This document shows, piece by piece, positions 7,300 to 30,931 of a stretch of 39,807 bases of DNA (positions are counted from its first letter, which is position 1; each line of letters starts with the position of its first letter). Position numbers and translations under genes: made by a program. The stretch is taken from the NCBI GenBank assembly GCA_044229975.1, contig JBGARZ010000032.1, forward strand, positions 1 through 39,807, in the 5' to 3' direction. The notes under the pieces were generated by a model. That model was not told the DNA's origin, ran no database searches, and saw nothing but the letters and a program-made list of their open reading frames with translations. Source of the DNA: Polyangiales bacterium. GTDB taxonomy: Bacteria > Myxococcota_A > Polyangia > Polyangiales > Ga0077539.

Positions 7300-7312
7300 G
7301 GGGATTGCCCCC
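7299..7312. terminator. Small hairpin between convergent genes (possible terminator)
   Basis: GGGGG-ATTG-CCCCC right at the helicase stop; no U-tract. Confidence 0.25.
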
Positions 7313-7367
7313 AGCGACAACACCGAGCCCCGCGAGGCGTGTGCGCCACCGGGCGTAGGGTGGACCT

Positions 7368-9503: not shown

Positions 9504-10018
9504 TGCTCTTCCGGCGACGCCGCCTCAATGGAGATGACCTCGAGCTCGCGCCGCCGTCCGCCGACGCTCACCGCGCGCACCTCGCCGATCTCCGCGCCCA
9601 GCAGCGAGGAGGCCAGCGGCGCGGTGTACGCCACGCGACGTCGCTCGGGCTCGCCGTCCTCGTAGCCCGCGATCACGAAGCGCTCGGTGCGGGCGCCGTC
9701 GTCGACGGTGACCGCGCTCCCGAGGCCCACGCGCGACGGCGAGGGCGGCGGGACGACCACCTGGAGGCGGCGCATCGCCTCGGTGAGGTCGCGCACGCGG
9801 CGGGCGAGCTGGTGCATCTGCCGCTGGTTCTCTTCGTAGGCGAAGTTGTCGTGCCAGACCGAGTTGTCGCCGGCCTCGGCGGCCTCGCCGTTGCTCGCGG
9901 TGACGGCGTCGTAGGCGGCGCGCGCGCGGTCGAGCCGGTGGCGGAAGCGCTCGTACCCTTCGGCCGTGGTGAAAAGGCGCTCGTCGCCGGGCGACGCGTG
10001 TCCAGAGGGGTGGGTCAT
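9500..10018 (-). CDS. GreA/GreB-family transcription elongation factor-like protein (172 aa)
   Basis: C-terminal part of track ORF 9500..10600 from ATG 10018. TAEGYERF, coiled coil with acidic tip GDNSVWHDNFAYE, VGLGSAVTV, VAYTAPLASSLLGAEIGE. Confidence 0.85.
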   Translation of the reverse strand: MTHPSGHASPGDERLFTTAEGYERFRHRLDRARAAYDAVTASNGEAAEAGDNSVWHDNFAYEENQRQMHQLARRVRDLTEAMRRLQVVVPPPSPSRVGLGSAVTVDDGARTERFVIAGYEDGEPERRRVAYTAPLASSLLGAEIGEVRAVSVGGRRRELEVISIEAASPEEQ

Positions 10019-10026
10019 GCCCGAAA

Positions 10027-10053
10027 GACGGGCGGTCGACCAAGACCCTGACA
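10027..10053 (-). promoter_or_regulatory. ECF-type promoter motif copy 1 (TGTCAG-N17-CGTC), upstream of greA-like operon
   Basis: Minus strand TGTCAG GGTCTTGGTCGACCGCC CGTC, then 8 nt to the ATG. Confidence 0.75.
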
Positions 10054-10139
10054 GACGCCGACGAGGCGCGTCGCGTGGCCCGACGAGGCCCATTTTCGGT
10101 GGCACCCGGTGTACCGTCAGCGCTCGCAGGGAGGACGCG

Positions 10140-11915
10140 TTGCTCGATCGAACCACCGCCCGCCACGGTCTTCCGCACCCGCTGGCGCTGCTGTACGACC
10201 GCCTCAACCAGCACGACCCGCGGGTGAAGCTCACGGAGCTGTTGCGCTTCGCCGAGGGCACCGCGCGCTTCCTCGCGTGGGTGCTCGTCGCCGAGGCCGC
10301 GGCCCGCGGGCTCCCACCCAGGTCGCTGCGAGACCTCGTGAAGCCCGGCGCGGGCTTCGGCTTCTTCCTCCACGTGATCGAGCGCACCATCCGCGAACGG
10401 CGGTCCCGGCCGGACGGTTTCTTGCGCCCGCTCGACGCCTTCCTCGACGACCCAGCGTGGTCGGCGTTGCAGGTCTTCAACGAGCTGCGCAACGAGGTTG
10501 CGCACCACCGGCTGTCGAGCTCCGCGGAGACGGCGCGCGCCCTGCTCGCCGCGCACCGCGACCACCTCCAGCACCTGCTCGACGGCGTCGCGTTCCTCAC
10601 GCGCTACCCACTGGGGGTGCCGCGCGGCCCGCGCGTCGGGCTCGACGGCGTGGTGACCGCGCACTGGTTCGCGTGCCGCGGGCTCTCGCTGCACAGCGGC
10701 AACATCGAGATCGCCGACGCAGCCCAGCTCCCGAGCGAGCAGCTCCTCCTCGTCGACCCCGACGCGCGCCTCGCGCTGACGCTGACGCCCTTCCTCCTTT
10801 GCACCGAGCAGGCCTTCTGCTGGCTCGACCTGCCGAGCCCTCACGACACCAGCCCGCGGTCGGTCTACGCGCGACCCCTGTCCGGCGATGCGCTCCCAGC
10901 CGGGACGCCCTCGGGCCTCCTCGACGCGACCGGCGCGTCGCCGGATGGGTTGAGCCTCGACGCGTGGCTGGCCGACCCCCGACAGCGCGGGCGCCTCGTC
11001 CCGCTCCGTCTGGATGCGCCGTCGCTGCGCGCGATCGTGCAGAGCGCGGCGCCGACGCAAGCCATCGAGATGCAGCCGGGCCCGGCCGCGTGGGTCATCA
11101 GTTCCGAGGCCCCGGCCGCGCCCGCACCCAAACTGGCCCCGGCCGCGCCCGTGCCGTGGGTGCCGACGATGGTCATACACTCAGTGCCCGTGCCGCTCAC
11201 GTCGATCGAGAGCATGGCGCCCGTGGCCAGCGAGCGACCCCGCTCCGCGGACGGGAAGTCGGACGGGCGAGCGCTGCCCCTGATCCTGGTAGCCGCGATC
11301 GGAACGACCCTGGCAGGGACGATGCTCGTGCTGGCCCTCCTCCGCGGCACCCATCCGCGTGAGCCCCTCGCGTGGTCATCCTCGCCGACGGCTTCGCCGG
11401 CGGCCTCGCCGCCTCCGGCGCCAGCGCTGCTTTCCTCGAACCCTTCGTTGCAGCAGTGGGTGCAGACGTGGCTGCCCTCCCTCGATCGCCTCGACGACCG
11501 CATGCGCGCTCGCTACGCCGACCGGGTGGCGTTCCACGGCATGTCGCGCAACCAGGACCCGTCGTTCATCCTCGGTCGCTGGCGCGAGCGCCTCCTGGCC
11601 GGGACCTTCGCCGTCGATCTGGCGCGCTCGACCTGGTACGAGACCGCCGAGACCGAAGCCAACGTGCCGGCGGCGTGTCGCGACCTACCCGGCGCCGACC
11701 CGGGGGTCACGCTGGCGCGACTCGAGGCCGACGAGGACGGCGCGCCGCAAGGACGGTCCTTCGCCACGAGCGGCGTCTGCTCGCGGGTGCGAGGTGCCTA
11801 CCTGCTGCGCTCCCGCGTCGTCGCCGGCCGTCGGATCATCTGCCATGAGACCTGGCATCAGGAAGCGGTCTGCCGCTCGTGTCCGGGCTTCTCCAACTGC
11901 TCTCGCGGTCGGTAG
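10140..11915 (+). CDS. HEPN-like N-terminal domain + Pro/Ala linker + single TM helix + Cys-containing extracytoplasmic domain
   Basis: TTG at 10140 after GGAGGA, in frame with track ORF 9966..11915. RNEVAH at 10488-10505. TM segment LPLILVAAIGTTLAGTMLVLALL. Several Cys in the C-terminal domain. Confidence 0.7.
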   Translation: MLDRTTARHGLPHPLALLYDRLNQHDPRVKLTELLRFAEGTARFLAWVLVAEAAARGLPPRSLRDLVKPGAGFGFFLHVIERTIRERRSRPDGFLRPLDAFLDDPAWSALQVFNELRNEVAHHRLSSSAETARALLAAHRDHLQHLLDGVAFLTRYPLGVPRGPRVGLDGVVTAHWFACRGLSLHSGNIEIADAAQLPSEQLLLVDPDARLALTLTPFLLCTEQAFCWLDLPSPHDTSPRSVYARPLSGDALPAGTPSGLLDATGASPDGLSLDAWLADPRQRGRLVPLRLDAPSLRAIVQSAAPTQAIEMQPGPAAWVISSEAPAAPAPKLAPAAPVPWVPTMVIHSVPVPLTSIESMAPVASERPRSADGKSDGRALPLILVAAIGTTLAGTMLVLALLRGTHPREPLAWSSSPTASPAASPPPAPALLSSNPSLQQWVQTWLPSLDRLDDRMRARYADRVAFHGMSRNQDPSFILGRWRERLLAGTFAVDLARSTWYETAETEANVPAACRDLPGADPGVTLARLEADEDGAPQGRSFATSGVCSRVRGAYLLRSRVVAGRRIICHETWHQEAVCRSCPGFSNCSRGR

Positions 11916-11948: not shown

Positions 11949-11975
11949 TGTCAGGTCGGATCGTCGCCTTACGTC
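11949..11975 (+). promoter_or_regulatory. ECF-type promoter motif copy 2, upstream of UvrD-nuclease
   Basis: TGTCAG GTCGGATCGTCGCCTTA CGTC in the intergenic gap. Confidence 0.75.
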
Positions 11976-14835: not shown

Positions 14836-17800
14836 TCAGCGGAAGCGCAACACGAGCGCGGCGAGGCGTGGCTCGGCGTCCGGTTCGCAGTGCGCCACTG
14901 CGGCGCAGAAGCGCTCGACCATGTCGACGCGGAGCAGCGGCCCGAGCGAACGCACGAGCGCGCGGACCAGGGACGGGTCGACGATCTCGATGGCGGCCTT
15001 GGTCAGCGCCAGGAGCGCCTCGGCGGTGTCGTCCATCTGCCGGGCCAACCGGACGGCACCGTCATGGTCGCCCGAGCGGAGGAGCGTCACCGCGACCTCT
15101 CGTTGGACCTCGACGAGGTCGTGCTCCTCGACGGTGAGATCGGACAACTTCATGGCCTCGTCGAGGCGCCCCACGTGGGCGAAAGCCTTTGCGACCTCAG
15201 CGCAATACCCGCTCCCCTTGATCGGCTCGCCGTCCCAGGTTTGGACCATCGTGCGGGCCTCATCGAGGAGAGCATCCACCTCGGAGGCGAAGCCACGGCC
15301 GGAGAGTTCCGCGGCGAGTTGGGCCATGAGCACCGGCTTGCTGGTGGCGTCCAACTCTCTCGACATGGCAATCGCCAGCATCGGGGCACGCCGGGAGACG
15401 CCGCGCAGGACGTCCGAGACGTCGGCTTCGTCGAAGGGGAAGCCGTAGTCGTCGTCCGAGCGCGTCAAGATCGCCTGTGCGACGTCTCGCGCGCCCGATT
15501 CTGGCGCTACGTCATCAACTCGGACGTCGAAGGCCTCCGTCAGGGCCACCATCAAGCGGATTCCGTCGAGGAGGGCCGCCTCGCTGCCAGCTTCCGACGC
15601 CCGTGTACACCAGTCGTAGGCCGCCCGAGACAGCGCGGAAGTCGGGATGTCCGCCGCCGAATGCCCCAGGATCAACGCGCTCGCGAGCGAGAAGTCGCCT
15701 CCCCGTGCGACCTCGGAGGCCAGGGACCAACGGGTCGTGTCGGGCAGGTCGAGCGCGCCTTCGCGGCCGCGGCCGATCGCCTCCAGGCGGACCGCAAACT
15801 CTTCGGCGCGCTCTGCCCGCACGGCCCGCGCGAGCACAATCACTTCGGGAACGACGGCCACCCGAGCCCTCGCGCGAGCGCGCGTCGTCGGCCACCAATC
15901 GTGTCGATCATGGGCCCTTGCCACCGACCAGTTCGCCCAGAACCTCAGCACCCGCAACGCACTCTCCCCGTCGTCGGGCCGCGCGTGGAGATGCTCGTCG
16001 AGACGTTCGAGCGCGACCGAGCCGTCGCCACGGAGGAGTGCCGACAACGCCTCGTCGGCTGCCGTGCGACCGGCGAACAAACCGCCGGCGAGCGCTCGGA
16101 CGATCGCCGCCTGATCTTCCCGCCACTCGTTGCGTCCTCGAGAGAACAAGATCTCGCTGACATCCGGCCTCTTCGTCTTCAGGAGCCGCGCCACCTCCTT
16201 CCGCACATCGCGCAGCCCGAGACGTTCTTCCGCCGCGAGCACGATCGTCGTCGCCGGGCCGATGTCCCATTCCCACTCGCGAGGCAGCCGCGCACGCGCG
16301 GCATTGGCGCCGAGAGTGAGCAGGGCCTCTTCAACTCGCTCGAACCCTCCCGGCCAGGCGACGAAGCTCCCCGTACGATCTGTGGTCGCGTGCGTCTCGC
16401 CGAGGGGGCCCGCCTCGATCGGAGTCAAGCCCGACAAGACGTCGAAGAGTTTGCGCCGACGTTGTTCCCAGAAGTCCTCAGCCGGCCCCATCCGCCACGT
16501 TGCATCCCGCGAGATCCCGATGGCGTCGATGGCCGCGCTACCGAGAGCGTAGAAGTGACCTGCCTCGCCCCAAGAGTGCAGCCGTCCCATCTCGAGCTCC
16601 ACCTCGCCCCGTCGTGCGCCGAACTCCTCTACCTGACCGGTCGCGGCGAGCTCCCAAAGCAAGAGCAGCTTCCAGCGGGTCGCCTCTCTCGGCTTCAGGC
16701 GATCGGCCAGCGCCCAGGCCGACGCGCCCTTCCCCGCCCGGAGCAGGTCGAGAGGGTCACTCGCTTTGACCAACACCTCCCCCCGCCGCCGAGCCCCCAC
16801 CGCCCATGCTTCGGCCGCCCGCAAGAGGTCTCCGTCCGCGAAGGACGCCTCCGCGGCGCCGTCGATCCAGCGCAGTGCACTCGTCGCATCGCCGTCGTCT
16901 GCCGCCGTCAACGACGTCAGGAAGTCTTCATCCGTGCCGAGGGAGATGCGCAGACTCCGGGCATCACGAGAGAGAGTCTCGTCGGCGTCCGCCTCGATGC
17001 GGGGGAGCACGATTTCAGCTTCCCGCAGCACCGGCACGCGGACCTCGTCGGGGGCCTCCCCCCAACGCTCGATCGCGCGGAGCCACGCCTTGCGCGACCA
17101 CCAGCGCACTGCCCTGATCTCCGCGGCGTGGTCGAGATAGAAGCGCAGTGTTTCGTGCCGTAGCGACCACCGACCGTCCGTCCTTCGCAGGTAGGTCGAC
17201 CCGAGGTCGAGCGAATGGGCCAGAAGATCCTCCCAGACCGGCGCCCCGCGGAGCATGTGCGTCGACAGCAGCGCCTCCAGGGTCCCGTGCGGCAGCCCCG
17301 GGGCAGTGGCCAGCACCGACATCGCCGCGATCAGGACCGAGCCTGTGTCGCCGATCTGGCTTCGCCGGAGAGAGCGGCGGTACGCGTCTTCCAGACCGGT
17401 CGGCAGCTGCGCGGCGTCGAAGGGGGCCCGTCCCGCCGCGAGGTCCGCCACGACGGTCGCGAGATAGAGTGGGATCCCCCGCGCCTGGTCGGCGACCGCC
17501 GCGATGAAGGCCTCGAACCCCTCCGCGCCCCGCTCGAAGAGCACGTACCGGCGGGGGCCGAGGGCGTCGCGCAGGTAGGCCATGGCGTCCTCGCGGGCGA
17601 GGGGGCGCAACCCCTCCGGGAGCGGCCGCACCGCGTCGACCAACGCCTCCGTCAACGCGCGATCGGGCCGACCGGAACAGACGACCCCGACGCCATCCCC
17701 CGCGAGGCCGACGAAGGATCGCGCGAAGCCCGCGGACTCCTCCTCGATCTCGTCGAGGGCGTCGACGATCACGACCACGGGCCGCCGTCGAGCGTGCGCC

Positions 17801-19008
17801 AGGGCGCGAAGCCGGTCGCGCGCCCGTTCGATGAGGGGCCGAGGCTCCGCTGGGTCCTCCTCGGGGCCGAGCCGCTCATCGACGAAGCGACACAGTTGTC
17901 GGTTGAACGAGCGAGCCAGCAGCGCCGCGCCGCCCGGCTCCGGGAAGAACGGAACGACGAGCCGTTGCGTCGTATCGAGAAGCTCGGCGGTGACCGAGGC
18001 CAGGAGCGCCGACTTCCCGACGCCCGGTTCGCCTGGGAGCCAGACGACGTCGTCGGGGTGGTTCGCGATCGACGCGAGGAGGGAGGCTCGGTCCGCCTCG
18101 CGTCCGACCAAGCCCTCCGAGAGTTGTCGCAGTCGGTTCGCCAACGCGTCGGGGCCGCGCGCGTCAGGTGATCGATGCCGGTTCGGCCCGAAGGCGTCAT
18201 CGACGCTTCGACCGACGTCTCCGGCCAGTCGGATGGGCGGCAGATCGTCGCCGGGCACGCAGTACTCGACCCCGCCGGGCGCCTCCCGCCGGAAGTACAC
18301 TAGGAGCGCGGTCCGGGGCGGCGCGTCGGGCTCCACGGGGGAGCTCACCGATTCGAGACGAATGAAGGGCGACGCCGAGCAGCGCCCCTCGGACCACGCG
18401 ATGCTCACCGCGGAGTCGTGCGCGCCGTCGTCGACCGCTCTGGCACCTCGGAGCGGTATCGGCGTTCCGTCCGGGCGCTTCCCTTCCAGCGAGACCGCCG
18501 ACAGGAAGTCGAGTCGAGAGAGCGCCTCGTCGAGGCGGTCGCGCCACCGACGCCACCACGCATCCGTCGTCTTCGGTCCGAGCGGGCCGACGTGGGCGAG
18601 GCGGTTGCGGAGCGCCAGAAGCGACTCTTCGGGCCGCTCGCGAGCGACACCGAGCAGCGGGGCGAGGTCACGCTCGGTCCAGGAGCGCAGGGTCAGCAGC
18701 ATCGGTTCCGGCTGCCGTGGGTCTTTGCCCGTGAGGCGCTTCAGCGCGGACGACCAACTACCCAGCGAGGGACGGTCGAGCCCTTCCAGCAATCCGCTCG
18801 CGCCGAGGTCTATGCCCGCGGCGCGAAGCGCGCAAAGGTGCAGCAGGGTTCCGAAGCGAACCGCCGCCTCGATCGCGTCGCACCCGCGCCACAGCGCCTC
18901 CCAGGGATTGTGCGCCAGCGCGTACTGCGTGACGGGTCCCGCCACCGGCGTCGGCCAGCGGTTGGCGAGGGCGCGCAAGTGCGATGGCGGGAGAGGGCGC
19001 TCCTCCAT
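14836..19008 (-). CDS. STAND/NACHT-like P-loop NTPase with N-terminal HEPN-like domain and C-terminal TPR-like repeats (Avs-like architecture)
   Basis: RNRLAH at 18592-18609; LVGRE; Walker A GEPGVGKS; Walker B VIVDALDE; GIPLYL; HETLR; helical repeats such as AHVGRLDEAMKL and SGDHDGAVRLA. ATG abuts the upstream stop. Confidence 0.82.
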   Translation of the reverse strand: MEERPLPPSHLRALANRWPTPVAGPVTQYALAHNPWEALWRGCDAIEAAVRFGTLLHLCALRAAGIDLGASGLLEGLDRPSLGSWSSALKRLTGKDPRQPEPMLLTLRSWTERDLAPLLGVARERPEESLLALRNRLAHVGPLGPKTTDAWWRRWRDRLDEALSRLDFLSAVSLEGKRPDGTPIPLRGARAVDDGAHDSAVSIAWSEGRCSASPFIRLESVSSPVEPDAPPRTALLVYFRREAPGGVEYCVPGDDLPPIRLAGDVGRSVDDAFGPNRHRSPDARGPDALANRLRQLSEGLVGREADRASLLASIANHPDDVVWLPGEPGVGKSALLASVTAELLDTTQRLVVPFFPEPGGAALLARSFNRQLCRFVDERLGPEEDPAEPRPLIERARDRLRALAHARRRPVVVIVDALDEIEEESAGFARSFVGLAGDGVGVVCSGRPDRALTEALVDAVRPLPEGLRPLAREDAMAYLRDALGPRRYVLFERGAEGFEAFIAAVADQARGIPLYLATVVADLAAGRAPFDAAQLPTGLEDAYRRSLRRSQIGDTGSVLIAAMSVLATAPGLPHGTLEALLSTHMLRGAPVWEDLLAHSLDLGSTYLRRTDGRWSLRHETLRFYLDHAAEIRAVRWWSRKAWLRAIERWGEAPDEVRVPVLREAEIVLPRIEADADETLSRDARSLRISLGTDEDFLTSLTAADDGDATSALRWIDGAAEASFADGDLLRAAEAWAVGARRRGEVLVKASDPLDLLRAGKGASAWALADRLKPREATRWKLLLLWELAATGQVEEFGARRGEVELEMGRLHSWGEAGHFYALGSAAIDAIGISRDATWRMGPAEDFWEQRRRKLFDVLSGLTPIEAGPLGETHATTDRTGSFVAWPGGFERVEEALLTLGANAARARLPREWEWDIGPATTIVLAAEERLGLRDVRKEVARLLKTKRPDVSEILFSRGRNEWREDQAAIVRALAGGLFAGRTAADEALSALLRGDGSVALERLDEHLHARPDDGESALRVLRFWANWSVARAHDRHDWWPTTRARARARVAVVPEVIVLARAVRAERAEEFAVRLEAIGRGREGALDLPDTTRWSLASEVARGGDFSLASALILGHSAADIPTSALSRAAYDWCTRASEAGSEAALLDGIRLMVALTEAFDVRVDDVAPESGARDVAQAILTRSDDDYGFPFDEADVSDVLRGVSRRAPMLAIAMSRELDATSKPVLMAQLAAELSGRGFASEVDALLDEARTMVQTWDGEPIKGSGYCAEVAKAFAHVGRLDEAMKLSDLTVEEHDLVEVQREVAVTLLRSGDHDGAVRLARQMDDTAEALLALTKAAIEIVDPSLVRALVRSLGPLLRVDMVERFCAAVAHCEPDAEPRLAALVLRFR

Positions 19009-20745
19009 TCAATACGGATACTCCCGAGCGAGGCGGCGGCCCTGCTCGACCGGCGTGATGTCGGGCGCGAAGAGCCAGCGCACGCCCTGGGGGTTCGCAT
19101 CGCGAATCGCCGCGATCGCCGGGGTCGGGTCAGCGCCCTGCTCCAGCGCTTCATCCAAGCGCGCGAAGATGCTCTCGATGGTCGGCCCGCCACCGTCGTC
19201 GAGCTCCGCGTGCAGGGCGGCCCTGAGCTCCTTCGCGCGGGTCGCCTGCCCGCTTGCGACCCGCGCGATCGCGTCCCAACGCCGGGCCGAGCGCCAGAGG
19301 AACGGCGGCACGTGTCTGCGATCGATGCTCGCGAGATGGTGGAGGCCCGCCGCGAAGTCCCCGCGCGTGACGAGCCCACGACCGAGCGCGAAGCGCACGA
19401 AGGCCGGGCCGAGGTCCGCGGGATCGTCGGCCGCGAGGTATGGCGCCGAGCAGCCGACCGCTTCCGACCAGCGCGACTCGTCGTCCGTGATCGCGGCGAC
19501 CCGCAGCCATTCGCTCAACGGGTAAGAAGCTTCTGCCACCCCGCCGTCGTCGAGCCAGCTCTGCGTCGCGGGCGCGAGGTGTCGCGCGGCCTTGGCGTAT
19601 CGCCGTTGCGCCGACAACGCCCGCCCGACCGCGCCTGCGAGCTTGCGCTCGGCAGGACCGTCATGGCCGTGACCCAACAGCGACTCGGCGCGCCGCAGGC
19701 AGTCGTCGATGGCGGCGACGCCCGCGTCCGCGGCGGCCTGCACCACGTGCGCAGCCATCTCGCAGTCGTAGGCGGGAACCACCGCCTCGTCCCAGTCGAT
19801 CGCGATGGACTCCCCTTGGGCGTGGCGGCGCGCGATCTGCGCCGCGACCCGCAATCGCGACGTCATTGGCGACCCGAGGTCGCTGCGCGCCGCGAGCCAC
19901 TCCGCCGAGCGGACGACCGCGCCCCAGAGCGGCAGCGGCGCGCCCTTGCGGCACAGTTCGATCAGGTCGTTGATGACGGCCCGCGCCCCGCCGCCCTCCC
20001 ACGCCGCGGGTGGCGCCTCGCGCGCCTCGGGAAAGACGCGCCCGACCGCTTGCGAAACGCTCGCGAGGCCGATCACCCGAACCCGGCGGGGCTGCCCCGC
20101 GAGCAGCGACTCGGCCTCGGCCGCCTGCTCCTGCGCCACGAGCACGGTGTCCACGGCGAGGGCGTTCTCGACGATCATCGACAGCTTGCGCTCGAGTCCG
20201 TCGACCCGTCGCAGCGAGCCGTCCGCATCGACGATCGCCGAGGCCGCGAGGCGCTCCGACACCGGGCGGCCCATGAGCTCCGAGGCCGCCGCCAGGGCGA
20301 GCGAGAGCCCGTAGGAGCGGTCGTCGAGCACGCGGTCGAGGTCGTCGCCGCGCTTGCAGATCCGCAGCGCGCTCCGCGGCCACTGCGAGGGCATCGCCGG
20401 GGCGATTGTGTGGAGGTGCGGGACGGCGCCCGACGCGCATCGGGCGGCGCGCTCCAGGCTGACGCCCATGGTCGTCCCGAAAGGGACGCCCGGCTGATGG
20501 AGCGGGTGCTTCCAGCGGAGCGCCCACAGCCCTTCCCGCGCGGTCCCTTCGGCGACCGACACCAGCAACACCTCGCCGCGTTTGGGGGGCGCTGGCGGCT
20601 GTGCGGCGTAGCTCCGCGCTGTCGCCTGCAGGGTCAGATCGCTCGGCCAGCACCAGGGAAAGGAGAGGGCGTTCTCGACGGCGCCGCGCAGGTAGGGCGG
20701 CACCGGGGCGCCGCCGAGGGCCTCGCGCACCGACAGCCGGTTCAC
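19009..20745 (-). CDS. Stand-alone Lon (S16) protease domain, no AAA+ module, followed by TPR-like repeats (578 aa)
   Basis: GTG 20745 overlaps the upstream TGA, after GGAGGAG. In DDRSYGLSLALAAASELMGRPV...VDADGSLRRVDGLERK the Ser and Lys are 43 residues apart, as in E. coli Lon S679/K722. No Walker A motif. Confidence 0.78.
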   Translation of the reverse strand: MNRLSVREALGGAPVPPYLRGAVENALSFPWCWPSDLTLQATARSYAAQPPAPPKRGEVLLVSVAEGTAREGLWALRWKHPLHQPGVPFGTTMGVSLERAARCASGAVPHLHTIAPAMPSQWPRSALRICKRGDDLDRVLDDRSYGLSLALAAASELMGRPVSERLAASAIVDADGSLRRVDGLERKLSMIVENALAVDTVLVAQEQAAEAESLLAGQPRRVRVIGLASVSQAVGRVFPEAREAPPAAWEGGGARAVINDLIELCRKGAPLPLWGAVVRSAEWLAARSDLGSPMTSRLRVAAQIARRHAQGESIAIDWDEAVVPAYDCEMAAHVVQAAADAGVAAIDDCLRRAESLLGHGHDGPAERKLAGAVGRALSAQRRYAKAARHLAPATQSWLDDGGVAEASYPLSEWLRVAAITDDESRWSEAVGCSAPYLAADDPADLGPAFVRFALGRGLVTRGDFAAGLHHLASIDRRHVPPFLWRSARRWDAIARVASGQATRAKELRAALHAELDDGGGPTIESIFARLDEALEQGADPTPAIAAIRDANPQGVRWLFAPDITPVEQGRRLAREYPY

Positions 20746-21806
20746 GGCTCCTCCACGAACGCCGCCCACCACGCGTCGGGCTCCTGCCAGGAGATGGCCA
20801 CCAGCCGCGGAGAGGCGATCGGCGCCAGGGCTCCCCAGGTCGTGGCGTGAGTGCGTGCGTGACGATCGAGGGGCTCCAGCCACGCGCGCAGCGAAGCGAC
20901 GCCGACCGCGGTGAGCAGCGTCGCCACGGAGGCCAGGTCGTCGCGCCGCTCCAGCCACGCCCGCGCGTCGTCCCGCGCGGCGAGCAGGTCGTCAGTCGCC
21001 CCGGTCGCGAGCGGCTCGAGCGCGAGGCCGAGCGCGTCGACTTCGAGCCGCGCGAGTTCCGCGGCGGCGCGGCTCGTGTCGGGCGGCAGGGCCCGCGCCC
21101 AGGCGATCGCCCGCGCCAGGGGGTCGTCGTTCGCCCGCACGCGCGCGAGGGCTGCGGCGGCGGTCGTGCGGGTGCCGCGGGGCGACCAGAGCCGTCCGAG
21201 CGTGCCGACCGCGGCGACGACGGCGAAGGCGTCCAGATGCAACGTCGGGTCGAGCGGCGCGGTCAACCAGGCTGGCGCGTCGAAGCCTCCGAGCAGCGCG
21301 TCCGCACCGGGCGACGTGACCAACGGACGCTCAGATGGCACCCCCGCGGCCATGGCCAGCAGCTCTTTCGAGGCCGCGGACACGACGCGCCCCCACTCGA
21401 CCTCGGACCCCTCGAAGCTCAGCAGGGCCTGCCCCGACGGGCCCGACAGGACGAATCGTACGTCCTCCTTGCGGGCGTCGATCAGCCAGCAGTCGGGGCG
21501 TTCGACCGCGCCACCGAGGACGTCGACCGACAGCCCGCCCGGCGTCAGCAGGAAGAGCCACGACGCCAGATCACTGCGCGCGAGCGAGGCCTCGGGCGCG
21601 CCCAGCCGCTCGGCCGTCGCCCCGAAGTCGCCGACGAGGCTCATCGCGGTTTCGAGATACTTGAGGTCCCGGGGAGCGTCGTCGGCGTGGGAGGCGAAGC
21701 CCAGTCCCACGCCGCTGTCACGCGGGAGGTTCTTGCCTTCAATCTCGATCAGGGTCCCGGGGGGGAGCCCCAGTTGCTGTCGTTGCTCTTCCGTCAGCGG
21801 CCTCAT
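20742..21806 (-). CDS. Hypothetical protein (354 aa); candidate anti-sigma factor or protease substrate by position only
   Basis: ATG 21806 after GGAG, in frame with track ORF 20742..21896. Coupled to the Lon gene. No recognisable motif. Confidence 0.7.
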   Translation of the reverse strand: MRPLTEEQRQQLGLPPGTLIEIEGKNLPRDSGVGLGFASHADDAPRDLKYLETAMSLVGDFGATAERLGAPEASLARSDLASWLFLLTPGGLSVDVLGGAVERPDCWLIDARKEDVRFVLSGPSGQALLSFEGSEVEWGRVVSAASKELLAMAAGVPSERPLVTSPGADALLGGFDAPAWLTAPLDPTLHLDAFAVVAAVGTLGRLWSPRGTRTTAAAALARVRANDDPLARAIAWARALPPDTSRAAAELARLEVDALGLALEPLATGATDDLLAARDDARAWLERRDDLASVATLLTAVGVASLRAWLEPLDRHARTHATTWGALAPIASPRLVAISWQEPDAWWAAFVEEP

Positions 21807-21868
21807 CCCAATGCTCCGATCTCGTTCACGGCGCCCCGGAGGGGGAGCCTTGTCCCGGTGACCTGGCG

Positions 21869-21895
21869 GACGACGGTGGCCCGACCCACCTGACA
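21869..21895 (-). promoter_or_regulatory. ECF-type promoter motif copy 3, upstream of hypothetical-Lon-STAND genes
   Basis: Minus strand TGTCAG GTGGGTCGGGCCACCGT CGTC, just downstream of the sigma gene stop. Confidence 0.75.
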
Positions 21896-21912
21896 CCCGC
21901 CCGGACGATTTC

Positions 21913-22611
21913 TCACCGCCGACGGAATTCCAGCACCACGCGCTCGAGCAGCGCGAACTCGTCCGCGCTGCGGCGCCCGTCCCGATGCTGGCGTGCAGCC
22001 GTGGCGATCAGCGCCTCGCGGGCCCGCTGGTGGTTCTTCATCGCGGCGTCCATGGCGCGCTTCAGATCCGCCGCGGGCGTGTCGTCGGGCAGGTTCCCGT
22101 CCCGCATGACCACCGCGGCCACGGTGACGTCGCCGTCGAAGAGCTCGAGCATCTGTCGGATCGCGTGGGATCGGCCCTCCCGATACCGCGGCTCGGTCTC
22201 CTTCAGCGTCTCGGCGATGGTCTCCTCCAGCAGCGCCATCGCGCGCCGTCGACCCTCCTCCTCGTCGACCGCGTCCGCGAAATGGACCCCTCCGTCCGCC
22301 GCGTCGTCGAAGACCTCCGGTGACGTGGGGGCGTAACGGCGGACCTTGCGGTGGCCGTCGTGCCAGCCGTTCTGGACCATGCGGTCGACGTACCGGACCA
22401 CCGCCCCGTCGTCGGTGCGCTCAAAGGACAGGGTGCCCTGCCGGGCCCGCTGCGCGAACTTCAGGAGCACATTCTGGCGGGCCTCGTCGCGGTCGACCGG
22501 GTTGTTGATCCGCCGCTCCGCCCGATCGCGCACGAGGCGGTCGAGGGCCTCCCAGGCCTCCTCGGCGTTCGCGTCGCCCTGGAGCGCCTGGATGATCTCC
22601 GAGGGCCTCAC
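21913..22611 (-). CDS. Divergent ECF (sigma-70 group 4) sigma factor (232 aa)
   Basis: C-terminal part of track ORF 21913..23541; GTG 22611 overlaps the upstream TGA. Region 2-like AWEAL..DRDEARQNVLLKF..VVRYVDRMVQNGWHDGHRK; region 4-like AIRQMLELFDGDVTVAAV..AMKNHQRAREAL. Confidence 0.72.
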   Translation of the reverse strand: MRPSEIIQALQGDANAEEAWEALDRLVRDRAERRINNPVDRDEARQNVLLKFAQRARQGTLSFERTDDGAVVRYVDRMVQNGWHDGHRKVRRYAPTSPEVFDDAADGGVHFADAVDEEEGRRRAMALLEETIAETLKETEPRYREGRSHAIRQMLELFDGDVTVAAVVMRDGNLPDDTPAADLKRAMDAAMKNHQRAREALIATAARQHRDGRRSADEFALLERVVLEFRRR

Positions 22612-23759
22612 TGCGCCCCCCGCACGGCGTGCGCCACCGCGATCCACCGCTGCGCCTGGTCCACCTCCCAGGAGCGCCCGCGCAACGCGTCGCTCGCGGC
22701 GGATCGACCGCGAAATGCTTCGGCGATCGCGTCTCTCGCGGGCCCGGCGGCTGCGATGGTGGGCTGGGCCCCGGAGCCGGGGTTCACCCTCGGCGGCACC
22801 ATGACGGACAGCCCGGTCGCGGCGGTCGCCTCCGCGCTCACGCCGTCCCACTGGTCGCTTCGCGTGATGACCCCGCGGAGTCGGTTGGCCACGAAGTCGG
22901 CGAGCGCCACGCCCGGCGCGACCTGCTCCCGGTAGGCCACCGCGCCCCACGGCAGGATGCGCACGTTGCCGTCCGGCGGCGGCACGGGGGCCAGCAGCGG
23001 AAAGGCCTCCGCCCGACGGACGCACGCCCCGAGGTCCTGGGGCATGAGCATGCGGCGCCGGGGCAGTCGGGCGTCGGTCACGTGGCGCTGCGCGGCGACG
23101 ACCCGCACCTCGTGCGCCTGCGCCGGGTTCGCTCGAAGCAGCGCGAACACCCGCTCGAAGAGCGCCGTGAGGAGCGAGAGGTACCGGTCGGTCCCGTCGA
23201 CCGCCGGGCCCCCGCCGTCGACCGCGGCGAGGATGTGACAGCGGGCGTCTCCGTACACGGCCCGCAGTTGCACGCCGAGGGCGCGGTAGCGGTCCTCCGC
23301 GCCGCGGGCCAGCGCCTCGAGCTCGGCGTAGATCATCGGGCTGGCGGCCCGCAGCCAGCGGCTGGCCGATTTGAGCGCGTCGTAGTCGGGCATCTGACCC
23401 TGCCGTAGTGCGTCGGCCATGCGGGCCAACGAGCGGTCGGGCAGCGCCCGTTGCAGCGCGGCCGCCGCGCGATCGAGGACAAGCCGGGCCGGGTGGGCGG
23501 CTCGCACGGCCGAGTCCGCCAGCGCCCAGCGGGCAATCCACCAGGCGGTCTGACGAAGCTCCGTCGCGTGGGGCGGGTAGGGCACGAGGGGGTCGAGGCG
23601 TCGAAGCGCGGCGCCGAGCATCTCGTCGGCGGCGCCGGAGGCGGCCTCTTGCAGCATCAGCCCGGCGATGAGCACGGTCTCGCCCGGAACGGCGAAGTCC
23701 CCCGACTCGTCGAGATGAAGCGTCCAGCGGGTCGGGCGACTGCGAGCGGCGTTCCCCAT
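22608..23759 (-). CDS. DUF3800-like (predicted RNase H-fold) protein
   Basis: C-terminal part of track ORF 22608..25259 from ATG 23759 (start uncertain). LHLDESGD near the N-terminus and GVALADFVAN near the C-terminus. Confidence 0.68.
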   Translation of the reverse strand: MGNAARSRPTRWTLHLDESGDFAVPGETVLIAGLMLQEAASGAADEMLGAALRRLDPLVPYPPHATELRQTAWWIARWALADSAVRAAHPARLVLDRAAAALQRALPDRSLARMADALRQGQMPDYDALKSASRWLRAASPMIYAELEALARGAEDRYRALGVQLRAVYGDARCHILAAVDGGGPAVDGTDRYLSLLTALFERVFALLRANPAQAHEVRVVAAQRHVTDARLPRRRMLMPQDLGACVRRAEAFPLLAPVPPPDGNVRILPWGAVAYREQVAPGVALADFVANRLRGVITRSDQWDGVSAEATAATGLSVMVPPRVNPGSGAQPTIAAAGPARDAIAEAFRGRSAASDALRGRSWEVDQAQRWIAVAHAVRGAQ

Positions 23760-23855: not shown

Positions 23856-23882
23856 AGTCAGGCTGCGCGCCTTCGGCGCGTC
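23856..23882 (+). promoter_or_regulatory. ECF-type promoter motif copy 4, upstream of DEAH helicase
   Basis: AGTCAG GCTGCGCGCCTTCGGCG CGTC, then 9 nt to ATG 23892. Confidence 0.72.
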
Positions 23883-26430: not shown

Positions 26431-26454
26431 GACGGCGTGTTGCGAGACGCCGTC
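26431..26454. terminator. Inverted repeat between convergent genes (candidate bidirectional terminator)
   Basis: GACGGCGT-gttgcgag-ACGCCGTC, a perfect 8-bp stem. Confidence 0.45.
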
Positions 26455-28645
26455 AGCGATCCACGGCCGGCACCACGACGGGGAAGACCCGCAGGGGGTT
26501 CGACAACGGCAGCATGTGGTACTGGCGCCCGATGACCAGATCGACGGGGGTGTGCAGGCGCTCCTCCCGCCCGTCGTCGTCGACCGCTAGATAGAGCCTG
26601 CGCCCGAAGTCGTCCTCTTGCACCCCGCGAACCCGTATGACGAGCGGGAAGAGCGGCCGGTCGGTGTCGGTAAAGAACCTCACCAGTTCGTCGGCTTCCG
26701 AGAAGAACTTCTGCGCGTCGCCCACGACGTGTGGACGGTCGTGCACCGCCATGTTGCGAATCCTGGGCAGGACGCTCTCGCCCTTCGGCAGCAGGCGGCG
26801 ATCGCCGTAGACGGCGTGAAAGCTCTTCCAGGCGCTCCCGCTCTCCTTGTCGTGCAGAGCCTTGTCGAGCAACTGGAGCGCGGAGAACAGCGACCCCAGC
26901 GTGAGCCGGTCGACGCCTCCGTTGTGCGGAGGCCAGCCCTTCGTTCGCGCGACCTCCTCGAAGGGCAACTCGAAGTGCGCCCGGCAGTGGAACTCAAGTA
27001 CGACCTTCAGGATCCGCTCGAGGACGCGGGACGCCTCGCCCACGCGCACCAACCCGTCGGCCTGCTCGAGCTCCGCCTTGCGCCCTGCGAGTTCGAGTCG
27101 ACGTCGCAACGCCCGGACGCCTTCCGGGGCGGGCGTCGCCTTGAACCCGAGCCAGGCGAGCAGCGCGGCGCGGACGGCAGCCTCGTCGCCCAGCAGATCG
27201 TCCCCGACCCCCGCCCTTCGTCTGGCCAACTCCCACCGGCGTTCGAGCGGGAGGTGGGCGAGCAGCGCGTTCGGGTCCCCGTCGAGCGAGTATTCGATGA
27301 GACGATGACGGAAGTCTCCCTTGAACGCCTTGCGATCGACCGCTGCGGTCAGGAAACGGAGCTCGGATTCGGTCAGCTCGGCGAGCAGCAGGTCACAGAG
27401 CCGAGACGTCGGCGTTTCGCCCGGGCGCTGCACCCGCGGTGACGCTGTCGGCCCGGGAGGAGGCCCGGCGGGCTGATCAGGGGGTGGCTGCGCTGGCACC
27501 GGCTCGTCGGGAACGACCTCGGTGGCCGAAGTCTTGAGGCGATTCCAGGCAGCGCCGAGCACACCGGCCAAGGGGAGAAGAGCCGAAACGCCCGAACCCG
27601 CGCCTGCGATCACTCCCGCTCTGACGAGAGCTTCCGTCTGGTGCGTTGGGAAGGCCATCGGTCCGACGGCGGCGACGAGGTCGACCCACTCCGAGATCGG
27701 CAGCCCGTCGAGCACGCGGAACAGGTCACGCCATACGGGCACCCACGCGACGCCCTCCCCGGCGGCATCCTCTTCGCTCGCGGCGAGCAGCGCCCGGAGG
27801 GTGGGGGCGACCCGGGCGCCGCGGCGCGTGCCCTCAATGCGATCAATGCACGTCGACACGATCTGTCGACGTAGCGCGCGCGGGAGCGACAGCCCGACCG
27901 GGAGGCCCGGCGCGACGACGACACGGGCGCGGTCGACGATTGCGTCGAGGAGAGCGTCGAGGGCTCCACGGACGGAGTGCGCCGAGAGGTTCTCCCGCAG
28001 GGCGCGCTCGATCGCGGTGACCAGTTGGGCGGACCACTGCGCCGCCACCACGAGCGGCGATCGGGGCTCTCGCACCGACGCGCCGAGCTCGTCCAGCCAA
28101 CCCGTCGGCAGCTCCCAGGGCGACACCAGGACGACTTCGCGGAGAGCGGTGCGAGCGCGGGCGTGCTCGACCAATGCCGCGCGGAAGTGCAGAAGGAACT
28201 CTTCGAACGGAACGTTCGCCCTGCCGGTTCCGACGGTCGGGAGAACGATCGCGGCGAGACCCAGCGAGGCGGCTTGGTCCAGCACCCGGAGCAGGAGCTG
28301 AGCGAGCAGTTCATGGCGGACGACCCGGCTCTCGTCCCAGTCCGCGACGACCGCGTGGATGATCCGCTCCGCCCCCGTGTCGCCGCCGGGGGTAACGACG
28401 GTGCAGGCCAGCGGCAGCGCACCGTCGGCCTGCCGAACGAGTTCGTCCATCGCCGCGCGAACGGGGGCCCCGGCGTGCTTGGCCACGGACCATGAGACGC
28501 CCCCGCCTGCCGACAGCCAGGTGTCGTCCGGGCTGACGATCGCGTACGGGCAGTGCAACGGCTTGACGACGACCAGGTCGGGCGAGGAGTCGAAGCGAAC
28601 CGTCAGGCTCCCGACGACGGCGGAGATGGTCATGGGCCCAGCCAT
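26453..28645 (-). CDS. Macro (ADP-ribose-binding) domain + helical region + C-terminal HEPN-like domain
   Basis: ATG 28645 with GGAG 8 nt upstream (track start 28717 is also possible). AIVSPDD..AGGGVSWSV, TPGG, IIHAV, LPTVGTG. LERILK..LTLGSL..RNMAVH (26741-26758). Confidence 0.8.
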   Translation of the reverse strand: MAGPMTISAVVGSLTVRFDSSPDLVVVKPLHCPYAIVSPDDTWLSAGGGVSWSVAKHAGAPVRAAMDELVRQADGALPLACTVVTPGGDTGAERIIHAVVADWDESRVVRHELLAQLLLRVLDQAASLGLAAIVLPTVGTGRANVPFEEFLLHFRAALVEHARARTALREVVLVSPWELPTGWLDELGASVREPRSPLVVAAQWSAQLVTAIERALRENLSAHSVRGALDALLDAIVDRARVVVAPGLPVGLSLPRALRRQIVSTCIDRIEGTRRGARVAPTLRALLAASEEDAAGEGVAWVPVWRDLFRVLDGLPISEWVDLVAAVGPMAFPTHQTEALVRAGVIAGAGSGVSALLPLAGVLGAAWNRLKTSATEVVPDEPVPAQPPPDQPAGPPPGPTASPRVQRPGETPTSRLCDLLLAELTESELRFLTAAVDRKAFKGDFRHRLIEYSLDGDPNALLAHLPLERRWELARRRAGVGDDLLGDEAAVRAALLAWLGFKATPAPEGVRALRRRLELAGRKAELEQADGLVRVGEASRVLERILKVVLEFHCRAHFELPFEEVARTKGWPPHNGGVDRLTLGSLFSALQLLDKALHDKESGSAWKSFHAVYGDRRLLPKGESVLPRIRNMAVHDRPHVVGDAQKFFSEADELVRFFTDTDRPLFPLVIRVRGVQEDDFGRRLYLAVDDDGREERLHTPVDLVIGRQYHMLPLSNPLRVFPVVVPAVDR

Positions 28646-28757
28646 ATCACGAGCTCCAGGCACCGATTGTCGAGAGTCCAGATCTCTCTCCGCCCGCGGC
28701 CGCTGTTCGGCGCTCACCCACGCGTACCGGCCGATGCCTTCCGAGCGGCCGCGCCAC

Positions 28758-30785
28758 TCAGTCCGCCAGCCGCCATGCTCCGAGCTGCGTCAGGCCGGGG
28801 ACGTAGGCGTTGTATCGCGTGCGCACCTCCCGCCCAGCGGAAGCGCCTCCGGCCCCAAGAAGTGCACGCACGCTGCCGGCGCCCACCGCGAAGCCCGAGA
28901 TCAGCTGCGCGCCGTCCCCGTCGCCCGCGTCGATCGAGTACACGAGGAGGTGCGTATCCGTCCCGGCCTTCGGCAGTTCGATGAGGTCCGTGCGGCAGTC
29001 GATCTTCCGTGCCTCGGCGCCGGACGGGCTCACCGTCTCGACGACGCGGTGACGGCGGAAGCTTCCGTATGGGAGTGCGTGCAGCGCGGGCGGCACTCGC
29101 GCCTCGAAACCCTTGAGTCGGGCGAGCGGGGCATCCTCGCCCCGGAAGGCAAGCTGTCCGAAGAGCCAGGTCACGTTGGTGAGCAGCGTCCCCTCGTCGG
29201 GGGTCGGACCCAGCATTCCGGCGGGGAGTCCGAAGGAGAGCGCAAGCTCGGGGCCGACCCAGCGCTGGCGCTTGTAGCCGAACGATGTGCGCAACAGGCT
29301 GAACAGGTACCCGTAGGTGTGGGTCAGCCCGGCGTGCCACGCGGGACCGGCCGCGGTCTCCCCCGCGATAGCGGCGACCACGCCCAGGATTGTCGGATCG
29401 ACGATGGCCGCCAGAGCGAGCTCGTCGAAGTTCAAGCAGCGTCCCCACGACTCGAAGCACCCCTGGCACTCCCGCGCCCGGGCGATGTCACCGGCGATAC
29501 GCGGCGCTTGGGCCCGCAGTAGTTCCACGACCGCCGCGGGACTCGCGACCGCGACCATCGATCGAGCGAGGCCAGCCCAGGGGCAATCGAGCGCGCTCTC
29601 CCCTCGCGCGTGGTCGGGGCACTCGGGGTGCGAAGGTGCAACGGGCCAGCCCGGCTTAGGGAGGTCGCCATCGGCCCATTGAATGGTCGCCCCTTTCGGG
29701 TCGAAGAGGCCGTCCTTCTCCAACGCCGCGAGCCTGCCCAGCTCAGGCAGCAGGTGCGCGAGGGCGACGCCCGCGTTGTGCGCGGCAGCGAAGTTTTGGG
29801 AGTACTTGCGCGGCGTGACCTCGGCGTTGAAGTTGGGCACCCGGTCGGTGAGCGCCGACACGAAGAGGAAGGGCGTGTCGTGCCACACCAGCCGGATCAG
29901 GCCGTGGGTGGTCTCGGCCGATCCGATCTCGCGCTGCCTGACTTGAGTCTCGAAGCGGCGGTGCGTCTCCTCGTCGGCCCAGACATAGTCGTCATAGTCG
30001 CAGATGTTGAGCGTGCCGAGCGAGGCGTACCCGTGGCCCGCCAAGATGCGCGGAGGTCGCGCCGGATTGATCGGCGCCTCGATGAAGCGCCCTTCGGCGG
30101 CGTGCCGGCTCTCGACCGACACGCCCGTCGCGAAGAGCGACGCGCTCAGGCGCGGACAGTCGAGGCGCTTGTCGAACCAATCCGCGAGCGGCGCGTGCAA
30201 CAGGGGACCGAAGCGCCTCTCCTGCGTGGCGACCTCGTCCGGCGAGGCGTCGTGCCAGGGGTCGTGGATGTACGCGCGGCTGCCGATCGTGACGCAGCCG
30301 TTGAAGGTCTGATCGGCGGGGATACCCGCGGTGCCGAACGCGATGACGAGGTCGCAGCCCTGGCCCTCGAAGGCCCGTGCGCGGATGATGGGCAGCGCCA
30401 CAGTGAACTTCTCATGGCTCGACGAACCGCTGACCGGGGCGAGGCCGTCGGCGATGTGGCGCTGACGACGCATCCAGTCCTCGACGCACCACACCTCGAC
30501 CACGGCGACAGGGGCTTTGTGAGGGCCGACGTCGAAGGAGAGCCGGGAGCGGGCGGGGAGCGCGCTGCGCAACGCGAGCCCCTCCGCCTCCGGGGGTAGC
30601 GTCGGTGCGAGGCCGGTCGACGGATCGATCGCGGGGGCCCTTCCCGCCGGGTCGAAGCCACGCACGAAGTTGCCCAGCAGGCCTCCAGGCGGACCGTCCT
30701 TCGACAGCAGCACTGCGATCAGCGGATCACACTCCCACGTCTTGTTGGCCACGATCAGGATGCGGATGGGGGCGTTCGCCATCAT
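28758..30785 (-). CDS. Divergent purine/uridine phosphorylase (PNP_UDP_1)-fold domain fused to an unknown C-terminal domain
   Basis: ATG 30785 after GAGG. ILIVANKTWE, DLVIAFGTAG, GSAETT, PFLFVSALTD, AAAHNAG follow the order of nucleosidase-fold elements. The C-terminal domain has HAGLTHTYGYLFS. Confidence 0.6.
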   Translation of the reverse strand: MMANAPIRILIVANKTWECDPLIAVLLSKDGPPGGLLGNFVRGFDPAGRAPAIDPSTGLAPTLPPEAEGLALRSALPARSRLSFDVGPHKAPVAVVEVWCVEDWMRRQRHIADGLAPVSGSSSHEKFTVALPIIRARAFEGQGCDLVIAFGTAGIPADQTFNGCVTIGSRAYIHDPWHDASPDEVATQERRFGPLLHAPLADWFDKRLDCPRLSASLFATGVSVESRHAAEGRFIEAPINPARPPRILAGHGYASLGTLNICDYDDYVWADEETHRRFETQVRQREIGSAETTHGLIRLVWHDTPFLFVSALTDRVPNFNAEVTPRKYSQNFAAAHNAGVALAHLLPELGRLAALEKDGLFDPKGATIQWADGDLPKPGWPVAPSHPECPDHARGESALDCPWAGLARSMVAVASPAAVVELLRAQAPRIAGDIARARECQGCFESWGRCLNFDELALAAIVDPTILGVVAAIAGETAAGPAWHAGLTHTYGYLFSLLRTSFGYKRQRWVGPELALSFGLPAGMLGPTPDEGTLLTNVTWLFGQLAFRGEDAPLARLKGFEARVPPALHALPYGSFRRHRVVETVSPSGAEARKIDCRTDLIELPKAGTDTHLLVYSIDAGDGDGAQLISGFAVGAGSVRALLGAGGASAGREVRTRYNAYVPGLTQLGAWRLAD

Positions 30786-30904
30786 GGGTCTACCTCGACC
30801 TCTCGTTGTACGAGATCGTCCCGTCGGGGCGGAAGCGCATGCGCTGCGCCGCCCGTCATCCGTGTCGCCCCGATCACACCGCCGATGGGAATAGGCATTG
30901 CGGC

Positions 30905-30931
30905 TGTCAGCAGACCGCGGCACGCGCCGTC
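30905..30931 (+). promoter_or_regulatory. ECF-type promoter motif copy 5, upstream of DUF697 gene
   Basis: TGTCAG CAGACCGCGGCACGCGC CGTC, followed by GGAGG and ATG 30958. Confidence 0.72.

Follow-up and report, generated by a model that had tools for sequence, protein, structure and literature searches.

A conserved cassette of DUF3800-like protein, ECF-like sigma factor, predicted anti-sigma factor and ATPase-less Lon protease as a putative CRISPR-independent switch for defence genes

Proteases that free a sigma factor from its inhibitor are known in bacterial immunity mainly as effectors of CRISPR systems (CalpL and Csx29), and a locus in a Polyangiales bacterium raises the question of whether similar logic operates in a setting without cas genes and, if so, which protein gives the alarm. 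The locus comprises five genes, encoding a DUF3800-like protein, a 232-residue sigma factor resembling the extracytoplasmic function (ECF) type, a 354-residue protein, a Lon protease with a C-terminal part resembling tetratricopeptide repeats (Lon-TPR), and a STAND NTPase, on contig JBGARZ010000032.1 of assembly GCA_044229975.1; the window analysed here is that whole contig (39.8 kb; 39,807 nucleotides) of a 10-Mb genome that is 93% complete. A sequence-only reading had proposed that the STAND protein senses infection and, through the protease, triggers cleavage of a 354-residue anti-sigma factor and induction of a five-promoter regulon. The comparative analysis reported here indicates that the conserved unit consists of four genes, namely those for the DUF3800-like protein, sigma factor, 354-residue protein, and Lon-TPR, and that the STAND gene is not part of the core. 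With an estimated probability of about 0.64, this unit acts in the cytoplasm, independently of CRISPR, to raise an alarm that switches on neighbouring defence genes, the 354-residue protein being predicted to keep the sigma factor inactive until the protease would cut it. Such a module would be a widespread CRISPR-free version of the logic of CalpL and Csx29, complete with predicted promoter, interface, and cleavage loop, and would bear on the timing of defence-island expression in bacteria.

All five genes are minus-strand open reading frames (ORFs) whose GC content varies by codon position as in real genes (ORF and composition analysis of the window), arranged, as the sequence-only reading had it, in the co-oriented order DUF3800-like, sigma, 354-residue protein, Lon-TPR, and STAND (Table 1). 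Three of the four junctions are tight: the DUF3800-like and sigma genes overlap by 4 nt (GTGA), as do the 354-residue protein and Lon-TPR genes (again GTGA), and the Lon-TPR and STAND genes abut with no gap; only the sigma and 354-residue protein genes are set apart, by 106 nt. An alternative GTG start for Lon-TPR at 20769 would give a protein of 586 residues. The first four genes recur in the same order, at 37-48% identity (tblastn) and without a STAND gene, on a second contig of the same genome (C19). Members of the 354-residue family turned up in 19 of the 61 genomes that make up the relatives set, in 29 of 401 phylum genomes, and, among 1.84 billion proteins, as 1155 representatives (E ≤ 1e-3, 50% clustering). 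The triplet of sigma factor, 354-residue protein, and Lon, whose conservation the sequence-only reading had named as a check, is strongly conserved; the module would bring with it an unnamed anti-sigma family of >1,100 representatives at this clustering level. Its occurrence is patchy, with the cassette present in three of eight other genomes of the genus.

A total of 52 loci with a Lon family member were collected, 32 of them reached via the anti-sigma search and 20 from the Lon side (18 from 46 matching genomes and two from another search, with about ten weak or partial matches left out); a related-locus search with the single Lon protein as query gave no match. Upstream DNA of 1.5 kb or more is available for 49 of the loci: the 354-residue family is present in 41, the sigma factor in 40, either of the two in 45, and the DUF3800-like gene in 28. 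In 40 of the 41 loci with the family, the anti-sigma stop codon lies no more than 150 nt from where Lon is estimated to start. The Lon-first set provides the fairer figure: 11 of its 20 loci have the anti-sigma gene (hidden Markov model search), four more have the sigma gene, and five have neither, these being two with a permuted partner and the promoter motif discussed below, one at a contig end, and two orphans. Previously taken to be peripheral, the DUF3800-like gene is, at 28 of 49 loci, more constant than the STAND gene. Across 38 relatives, counting non-gap positions, its D17 and E18 are retained in 34 of 34 and its D288 in 33 of 33, and the family conserves an N-terminal D-E-S-G and a C-terminal A-D acidic motif. 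Pfam DUF3800 was matched weakly, by 4 of 13 members (best E 6e-4) and not by the window protein. DUF3800 is described as an RNase H fold (PMC12669027), and this protein is likely an active nuclease.

The protease has the features that the sequence-only reading had noted. S144 and K187, 43 residues apart, align with the Lon dyad and show no variation among the aligned homologs (27 of 27), and the family profile matches Lon proteolytic domains in a PDB profile search (E 5e-9). The AlphaFold2 (AF2) model (predicted local distance difference test score, pLDDT, 91; predicted template modelling score 0.86) shows a Lon proteolytic domain followed by an all-helical solenoid, with no ATPase, and its top Foldseek matches are Lon proteolytic domains (probability 1.00). 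Neither an ATPase nor a SAVED domain was matched in the window Lon by Pfam, NCBIfam, or PADLOC, and the TPR label corresponds to the predicted solenoid, with a single Pfam match (TPR_12) at E 0.84. Across the Lon relatives, the dyad is intact in 50 of 52; the serine is lost only in two orphans without sigma partners (L157 and L159), as would be expected if the protease has a dedicated substrate, although these are two cases only.

In relatives, the part behind the protease domain varies within the same gene context. One such protein (L096) matches CARF_LON over its length (PADLOC E 1.7e-37), and L081 carries a CARF domain; the hhalign Lon alignment with L096 is weak (E 0.011), and its link rests on motifs, position, and the PADLOC match. 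In L087, a Ser/Lys motif with the same 43-residue spacing precedes a NACHT domain at the Lon position, a link based on motifs and position, suggesting that relatives probably also swap the TPR part for NACHT. With CARF and NACHT exchanged behind the protease domain, this region looks like an input slot. Other Lon genes stand in further surroundings. The L087 cassette and that of L103 (G438:C52) encode a 1934-residue Lon-like/NACHT protein followed by BREX-like genes (by eye), with MoxR-vWA genes on the other side, and in L090 a reverse transcriptase fused to an AEP primase (4782-7547) is convergent with the Lon-TPR cassette. A third, divergent Lon-TPR of the genome studied here (L168; G000:C36, 197390-212020) precedes a kinase whose N-terminus looks sigma-like by eye; two HEPN-like nSTAND1-WD40 genes flank this Lon-TPR, and no anti-sigma gene was seen there.

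The assignment of the 232-residue protein as an ECF sigma factor holds for region 2. A profile of the family matched SigH (E 9.7e-5), SigL (E 1.1e-4), and also RpoE in the PDB over the N-terminal two thirds; TIGR02937 matched 10 of 22 family members (best 5e-9); and among the Atlas neighbours, at 0.96-0.97, is one cluster with Sigma70_r2 in 16% of its members. Region 4 was not detected in NCBIfam and PDB profile searches, with no match beyond about residue 158; the C-terminal part contains a conserved block at 187-198 with an invariant R198. Its predicted partner, the 354-residue protein, had no Pfam, NCBIfam, PADLOC, PDB sequence, or Foldseek (PDB) match and no usable Atlas match. In the AF2 model (pLDDT 86.7), residues 1-143 form a beta domain and residues 168-350 a helical domain, joined by a linker of low confidence; the helical domain ends in an invariant W-Q-x-P-x-x-W-W.

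The anti-sigma role, which had been based on gene position, gains further support from complex prediction. The predicted complex of sigma factor and 354-residue protein scored 0.86 (runs at 0.78, 0.86, and 0.88) versus 0.00 for the best of three controls; among reference pairs, 116 of 157 solved ones and 2 of 215 mismatched ones attain the score mark, figures that are only rough with own alignments. The runs share at least 32% of contacts, with partner pLDDT of at least 79, and place sigma residues 43-83 and 180-232 against the helical domain, including invariant W340, Q341, P343, and W346. In addition, two proteins of 605 and 623 residues (P0083 and P0148) join sigma and anti-sigma in one reading frame, either as true fusions or through a missing stop. 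Thus, the 354-residue protein is predicted to bind and block the sigma factor. A sister type of this pair occurs in L164, L165, and L166, with the same promoter motif and a partner in which the helical domain comes first and the beta domain last, linked by an Ala-rich joint like the CalpT cut site. In L033, a second sigma pair of this permuted type lies directly behind Lon (5089-6784); the hhalign alignment of the anti-sigma family with this second partner is weak (E 0.024), and the link rests on motifs and position.

Where the anti-sigma factor might be cut is suggested by its N-terminal domain, in which the most conserved residue after the start is G36 (86% of 118 aligned members), within a low-confidence loop. 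A glycine at positions 35-37 of this loop (32-43) is present in 35 of 42 Lon-linked versus 1 of 12 Lon-less loci in an aligned test, in which kin are not independent. The Lon-less group was taken without six loci, namely two at contig ends (L026 and L028), two with variant proteases (L087 and L096), and two with Lon elsewhere in the genome (L089 and L097). An unaligned regular-expression test gave 18 of 42 versus 9 of 18 and did not separate the groups. Since CalpL cuts in an Ala-rich loop away from the sigma interface, the flexible Gly loop is proposed as a candidate cleavage site.

The promoter motif TGTCAG-N17-CGTC has four exact copies in the window versus 0.13 expected, plus one near match, each beginning 35-97 nt before a gene start. 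The five promoters of the sequence-only reading correspond to these five motif sites, which the sigma factor of the cassette would read. One copy lies between the sigma stop codon and the anti-sigma gene, and 22 of 46 loci carry the motif at the same position (spacer 17 in 16 of them and spacer 16 in six, against zero to one locus for any other spacer). In 353 kb of 21 close loci, 30 sites were found at spacer 17 versus 0-4 at 15 other spacers, so that the motif, like the genes, is conserved across genomes. It resembles the ECF41 promoter, TGTCACA-n16-CGTC (PMC3426412). Of 24 genome-wide sites, nine belong to the window or lie no more than about 26 kb from the C19 cassette, and a gene-start filter retained 7 of the 24 versus 1-3 of 13-18 at other spacers, a result that is indicative only, as two known window sites were missed. 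In several of the loci L032-L040, the sigma gene itself contains the TGTCAG of the −35 box, which there encodes the conserved R-C-Q end of the protein. A further copy, at C19 20077 (+), precedes an apparent type I restriction-modification operon 25 kb from the paralogous cassette.

Taken together, the following mechanism is proposed. The C-terminal helical domain of the anti-sigma factor is predicted to cover the sigma factor at the two segments named above. An infection cue would bind the TPR-like solenoid and activate the ATPase-less Ser/Lys protease, which would then cut the anti-sigma factor, most likely in the Gly loop; because this loop lies well away from the domain that binds the sigma factor, host proteases would have to degrade the anti-sigma factor further, as has been shown for CalpT. 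The freed sigma factor would read TGTCAG-N16/17-CGTC, raising the supply of anti-sigma factor and protease as feedback and inducing whatever lies behind Lon together with scattered island genes. In the window, this cargo would comprise the HEPN-like STAND, the UvrD-nuclease, the DEAD helicase, and the cluster of greA, kinase, and viperin-like genes.

Several observations weigh against this reading. The sigma factor has no region 4 match; 12 loci have the anti-sigma gene without an adjacent Lon, suggesting that release is apparently possible by another route; and Lon itself lies behind the sigma motif, which fits an output role too. The motif is absent at spacer 16-17 from 24 of the 46 loci and was derived from these same loci, its genome-wide enrichment is modest (24 sites versus 4-18 at other spacers), and other ECF factors may read similar sites. 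Because the loci are kin, the counts overstate independence; the Lon-less set represents only a few clades, and the anti-sigma search supplied 32 of the 52 Lon loci. Behind Lon, 20 of 38 loci have no co-oriented gene called, and some downstream genes look housekeeping (flavin oxidoreductase and glutaredoxin/MauE). Finally, the identification of L087 as a Lon is weak by hhalign (E 0.14).

A bolder form of the alarm switch is put forward tentatively: Lon-TPR could be a pattern-recognition protease whose solenoid binds a phage protein directly and which cuts the new anti-sigma family, making the cassette a plug-in master switch for defence islands, with inputs (TPR, CARF, and NACHT) and cargo (type III CRISPR, STAND, nucleases, and restriction-modification) freely exchanged, and a CRISPR-independent pool for CARF-Lon effectors. 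If true, this would name the substrate of the uncharacterised CARF-Lon proteins.

Alternatively, Lon-TPR might be an output of the switch, namely an effector or quality-control protease that the sigma factor induces and that acts on another substrate, the anti-sigma factor being released by a ligand or a host protease. This is unlikely, given the tight coupling of anti-sigma and Lon genes (40 of 41 loci), the loop glycine that tracks Lon presence, the loss of the catalytic serine in orphan Lons, and the precedent of CalpL (10.1101/2024.05.08.593097), even though it would accommodate the position of Lon downstream of the sigma motif, the 12 Lon-less loci, one Lon on the opposite strand (L088), and the speculation that CARF-Lon is a toxic protease (PMC9704534).

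The STAND protein had been placed at the head of the pathway, where it would oligomerise on a phage cue and activate Lon-TPR in an NLR-like cascade to the sigma factor. Its NTPase is confirmed by AAA_16 above the Pfam cut-off, with Walker A at 326 and Walker B at 413; the HEPN and TPR parts of its label are not independently confirmed, with no Pfam match for HEPN and no TPR match for residues 641-1390. The HEPN label is based on an RNRLAH motif (134-139), kept in all three homologs found, and the C-terminus has only short similarity to a repeat-rich homolog. For 38 Lon loci, 1.5 kb or more of downstream DNA is available; the next gene is co-oriented in 18, convergent in 10, and not called in 10, and a STAND gene is co-oriented directly behind Lon in the window only. 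The C19 paralog has another gene in this slot, and among 60 relatives a homolog occurs in one, on a contig without the cassette; in that genome, the genes behind Lon encode a metallophosphoesterase and an AAA protein. Elsewhere, the slot holds cas10 with III-D genes, Csx1 with a III-B operon, Csx1 with CARF-RelE, Csx20, a restriction endonuclease, kinases, a kinase-helicase-HNH set, and some ordinary enzymes. This rarity, together with the protein's own effector motif and its position behind a sigma motif, makes a dedicated STAND sensor quite improbable, despite the gapless Lon/STAND junction, the apparent fusion of a Lon-like domain to NACHT in L087, STAND-type genes near the cassette in L084 (convergent, 1.1 kb) and L073 (upstream), and the two nSTAND1-WD40 genes beside the third Lon-TPR. 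Since the slot lies behind the sigma motif, the best reading of the STAND protein is that of induced cargo carrying an effector domain of its own, likely not the trigger, and the caveat in the sequence-only reading that it may be an output is the better account. STAND-Lon coupling may nevertheless exist in some members, namely L084, L073, L087, and C36, with STAND-type genes near or fused.

Least probable of all is a switch that answers a general stress or developmental cue, with defence neighbours reflecting island co-location: non-defence neighbours in several loci, the motif copies ahead of greA and a glycosyltransferase-methyltransferase gene, and the use of such logic in development by HetZ/PatU3 (PMC13342950) are compatible with it, and it is opposed by the patchy occurrence within the genus (3 of 8 genomes), the adjoining type III, BREX-like, and type I restriction-modification-like genes, and the existence of CARF-fused protease variants.

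In its logic, the cassette is CalpL-CalpT-CalpS-like, with an anti-sigma factor of no recognised family. Both systems pair a Lon proteolytic domain carrying a Ser/Lys dyad and no AAA+ with an adjoining anti-sigma factor and ECF-like sigma factor, and both have a two-domain anti-sigma factor with a likely cut site away from the sigma interface, CalpL cutting an LAAA motif of CalpT (10.1101/2024.05.08.593097). In contrast to CalpL, the protease described here has a TPR-like solenoid in place of SAVED; CalpT combines a MazF-like domain with DUF2080, whereas the anti-sigma factor of the cassette combines beta and helical domains; an additional DUF3800-like gene is present, and the loci are mostly CRISPR-free. 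Membership in CalpL-CalpT-CalpS was rejected for the missing SAVED domain, the differing anti-sigma architecture, and Cas10, which was not found in the 93%-complete genome. The helical domain of the 354-residue protein may resemble the Csx30 N-terminus, a likeness not detected in sequence or Foldseek PDB searches; NCBIfam and PADLOC likewise gave no match to a Csx30-homologous anti-sigma factor. Csx29-Csx30-CASP-sigma shares the protease/anti-sigma/sigma logic and the sigma motifs inside the defence locus (PMC10028731); its protease is a His/Cys CHAT rather than a Ser/Lys Lon, and a type III-E assignment was rejected, as neither a TPR-CHAT protease nor Cas7-11 was found by Pfam, NCBIfam, or PADLOC. 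The best NCBIfam match of the window sigma factor is the III-E sigma model, at 14.9 bits far below its 100-bit cut-off.

CARF-Lon proteins (PADLOC CARF_m2 and CARF_LON) belong to the same broad Lon lineage (window Lon domain E 4e-5) and include L096, in a DUF-sigma-anti-sigma context, and the passages of PMC9704534 that describe them treat them as uncharacterised and give no sigma link. CARF_m2 membership was rejected, as the window match covers the Lon part only, without the CARF domain met in L096 and L081. Avs and related STAND antiviral ATPases resemble the window STAND in a putative N-terminal effector, a STAND NTPase with Walker A/B motifs, and a long helical C-terminus, but the window protein has no PADLOC Avs match; a STAND gene as a core part of the system was rejected at 1 of 38 loci. 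No published description of the four-gene module was found in the literature searched, supplements and the original CARF classification paper being outside its scope. HetF of cyanobacteria is a CHAT protease. Sigma control of defence islands (DdvA-DdvS) and CRISPR-free protease/anti-sigma logic (HetZ-PatU3) are nonetheless known in principle. DdvA-DdvS of Myxococcus xanthus is likewise an ECF sigma/anti-sigma pair with several defence-island promoters and a TPR-protease module as presumed sensor; DdvA, however, is one transmembrane protein with a periplasmic TPR-CHAT and a zinc-binding anti-sigma domain, released via RseP (PMC11506125), whereas anti-sigma factor and protease are separate genes here and the protease is Lon-type. 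HetF-PatU3-HetZ also combines a CRISPR-independent protease with an anti-sigma factor plus an atypical ECF sigma factor (PMC13342950, PMC9457339), but has a developmental role, a −35 element of TCCGGA, and no detected homology to the cassette.

Table 1. Features of the cassette and positions of the promoter motif in the window.
Feature	Position	Strand	Detail
DUF3800-like protein, predicted RNase H-fold nuclease; core gene 1	22608..23759	-	383 aa
ECF-like sigma factor with atypical C-terminal region; core gene 2	21913..22611	-	232 aa
Predicted sigma-dependent promoter TGTCAG-N17-CGTC, ahead of anti-sigma, Lon, and STAND genes	21869..21895	-	motif search
Predicted anti-sigma factor; core gene 3	20742..21806	-	354 aa
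ATPase-less Lon (S16) protease with C-terminal TPR-like helical solenoid; core gene 4	19009..20745	-	578 aa, S144/K187
STAND NTPase with HEPN-like N-terminal domain and helical C-terminus; locus-specific, in variable slot behind Lon	14836..19008	-	1390 aa
Motif copy ahead of greA (start 10018), thymidylate kinase, viperin-like radical SAM, and small kinase	10027..10053	-	
Motif copy ahead of UvrD-PD(D/E)XK gene (start 12046)	11949..11975	+	
Near-match motif AGTCAG-N17-CGTC ahead of divergent MrfA-like DEAD helicase (start 23892)	23856..23882	+	
Motif copy ahead of 122-aa gene without known function (start 30958)	30905..30931	+	

The five genes sit in an island of the defence type, in which family-profile scans identified helicases, dynamins, a macro-domain protein, an integrase, and a viperin-like cluster. 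The earlier description of the system as lacking CRISPR applies to this locus, as no cas genes were recognised in the window by Pfam, NCBIfam, or PADLOC scans and a repeat search of the window gave no CRISPR-like array and no informative repeat; it does not extend to all relatives, some of which adjoin type III genes. Elsewhere in the genome, contig C11 carries a CRISPR-like array near 433820, with about 59 repeats at 61-nt spacing. Its repeat looks like one of type I-E.

Near the contig end, a pair of dynamin-like genes (LeoA/LeoBC-like in PADLOC) together with a tyrosine integrase, at 32689-37339 (-) and 37744-39141 (-), suggests a mobile defence island. Two large ORFs, at 28758-30923 (-) and 31486-32676 (-), are open frames of 721 and 396 residues for which neither Pfam nor NCBIfam gave a match and no paralog was found. 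Behind its motif copy, the segment 7368-10018 (-) encodes GreA, a thymidylate kinase (PADLOC PDC-M51B, E 3e-52), a viperin-like radical SAM protein, and a small kinase, and a similar kinase/radical SAM cluster adjoins the cassette in L160. An RNxxxH (HEPN-like) motif occurs in four genes of the contig, none of which has a Pfam name: a kinase-dynamin fusion (312-4481), a 649-residue open frame (9966-11915), the STAND gene (14836-19008), and a macro-domain protein (26453-28717). The first three are linked through pairwise similarity with STAND homologs, and the four may possibly represent one unnamed effector domain family.

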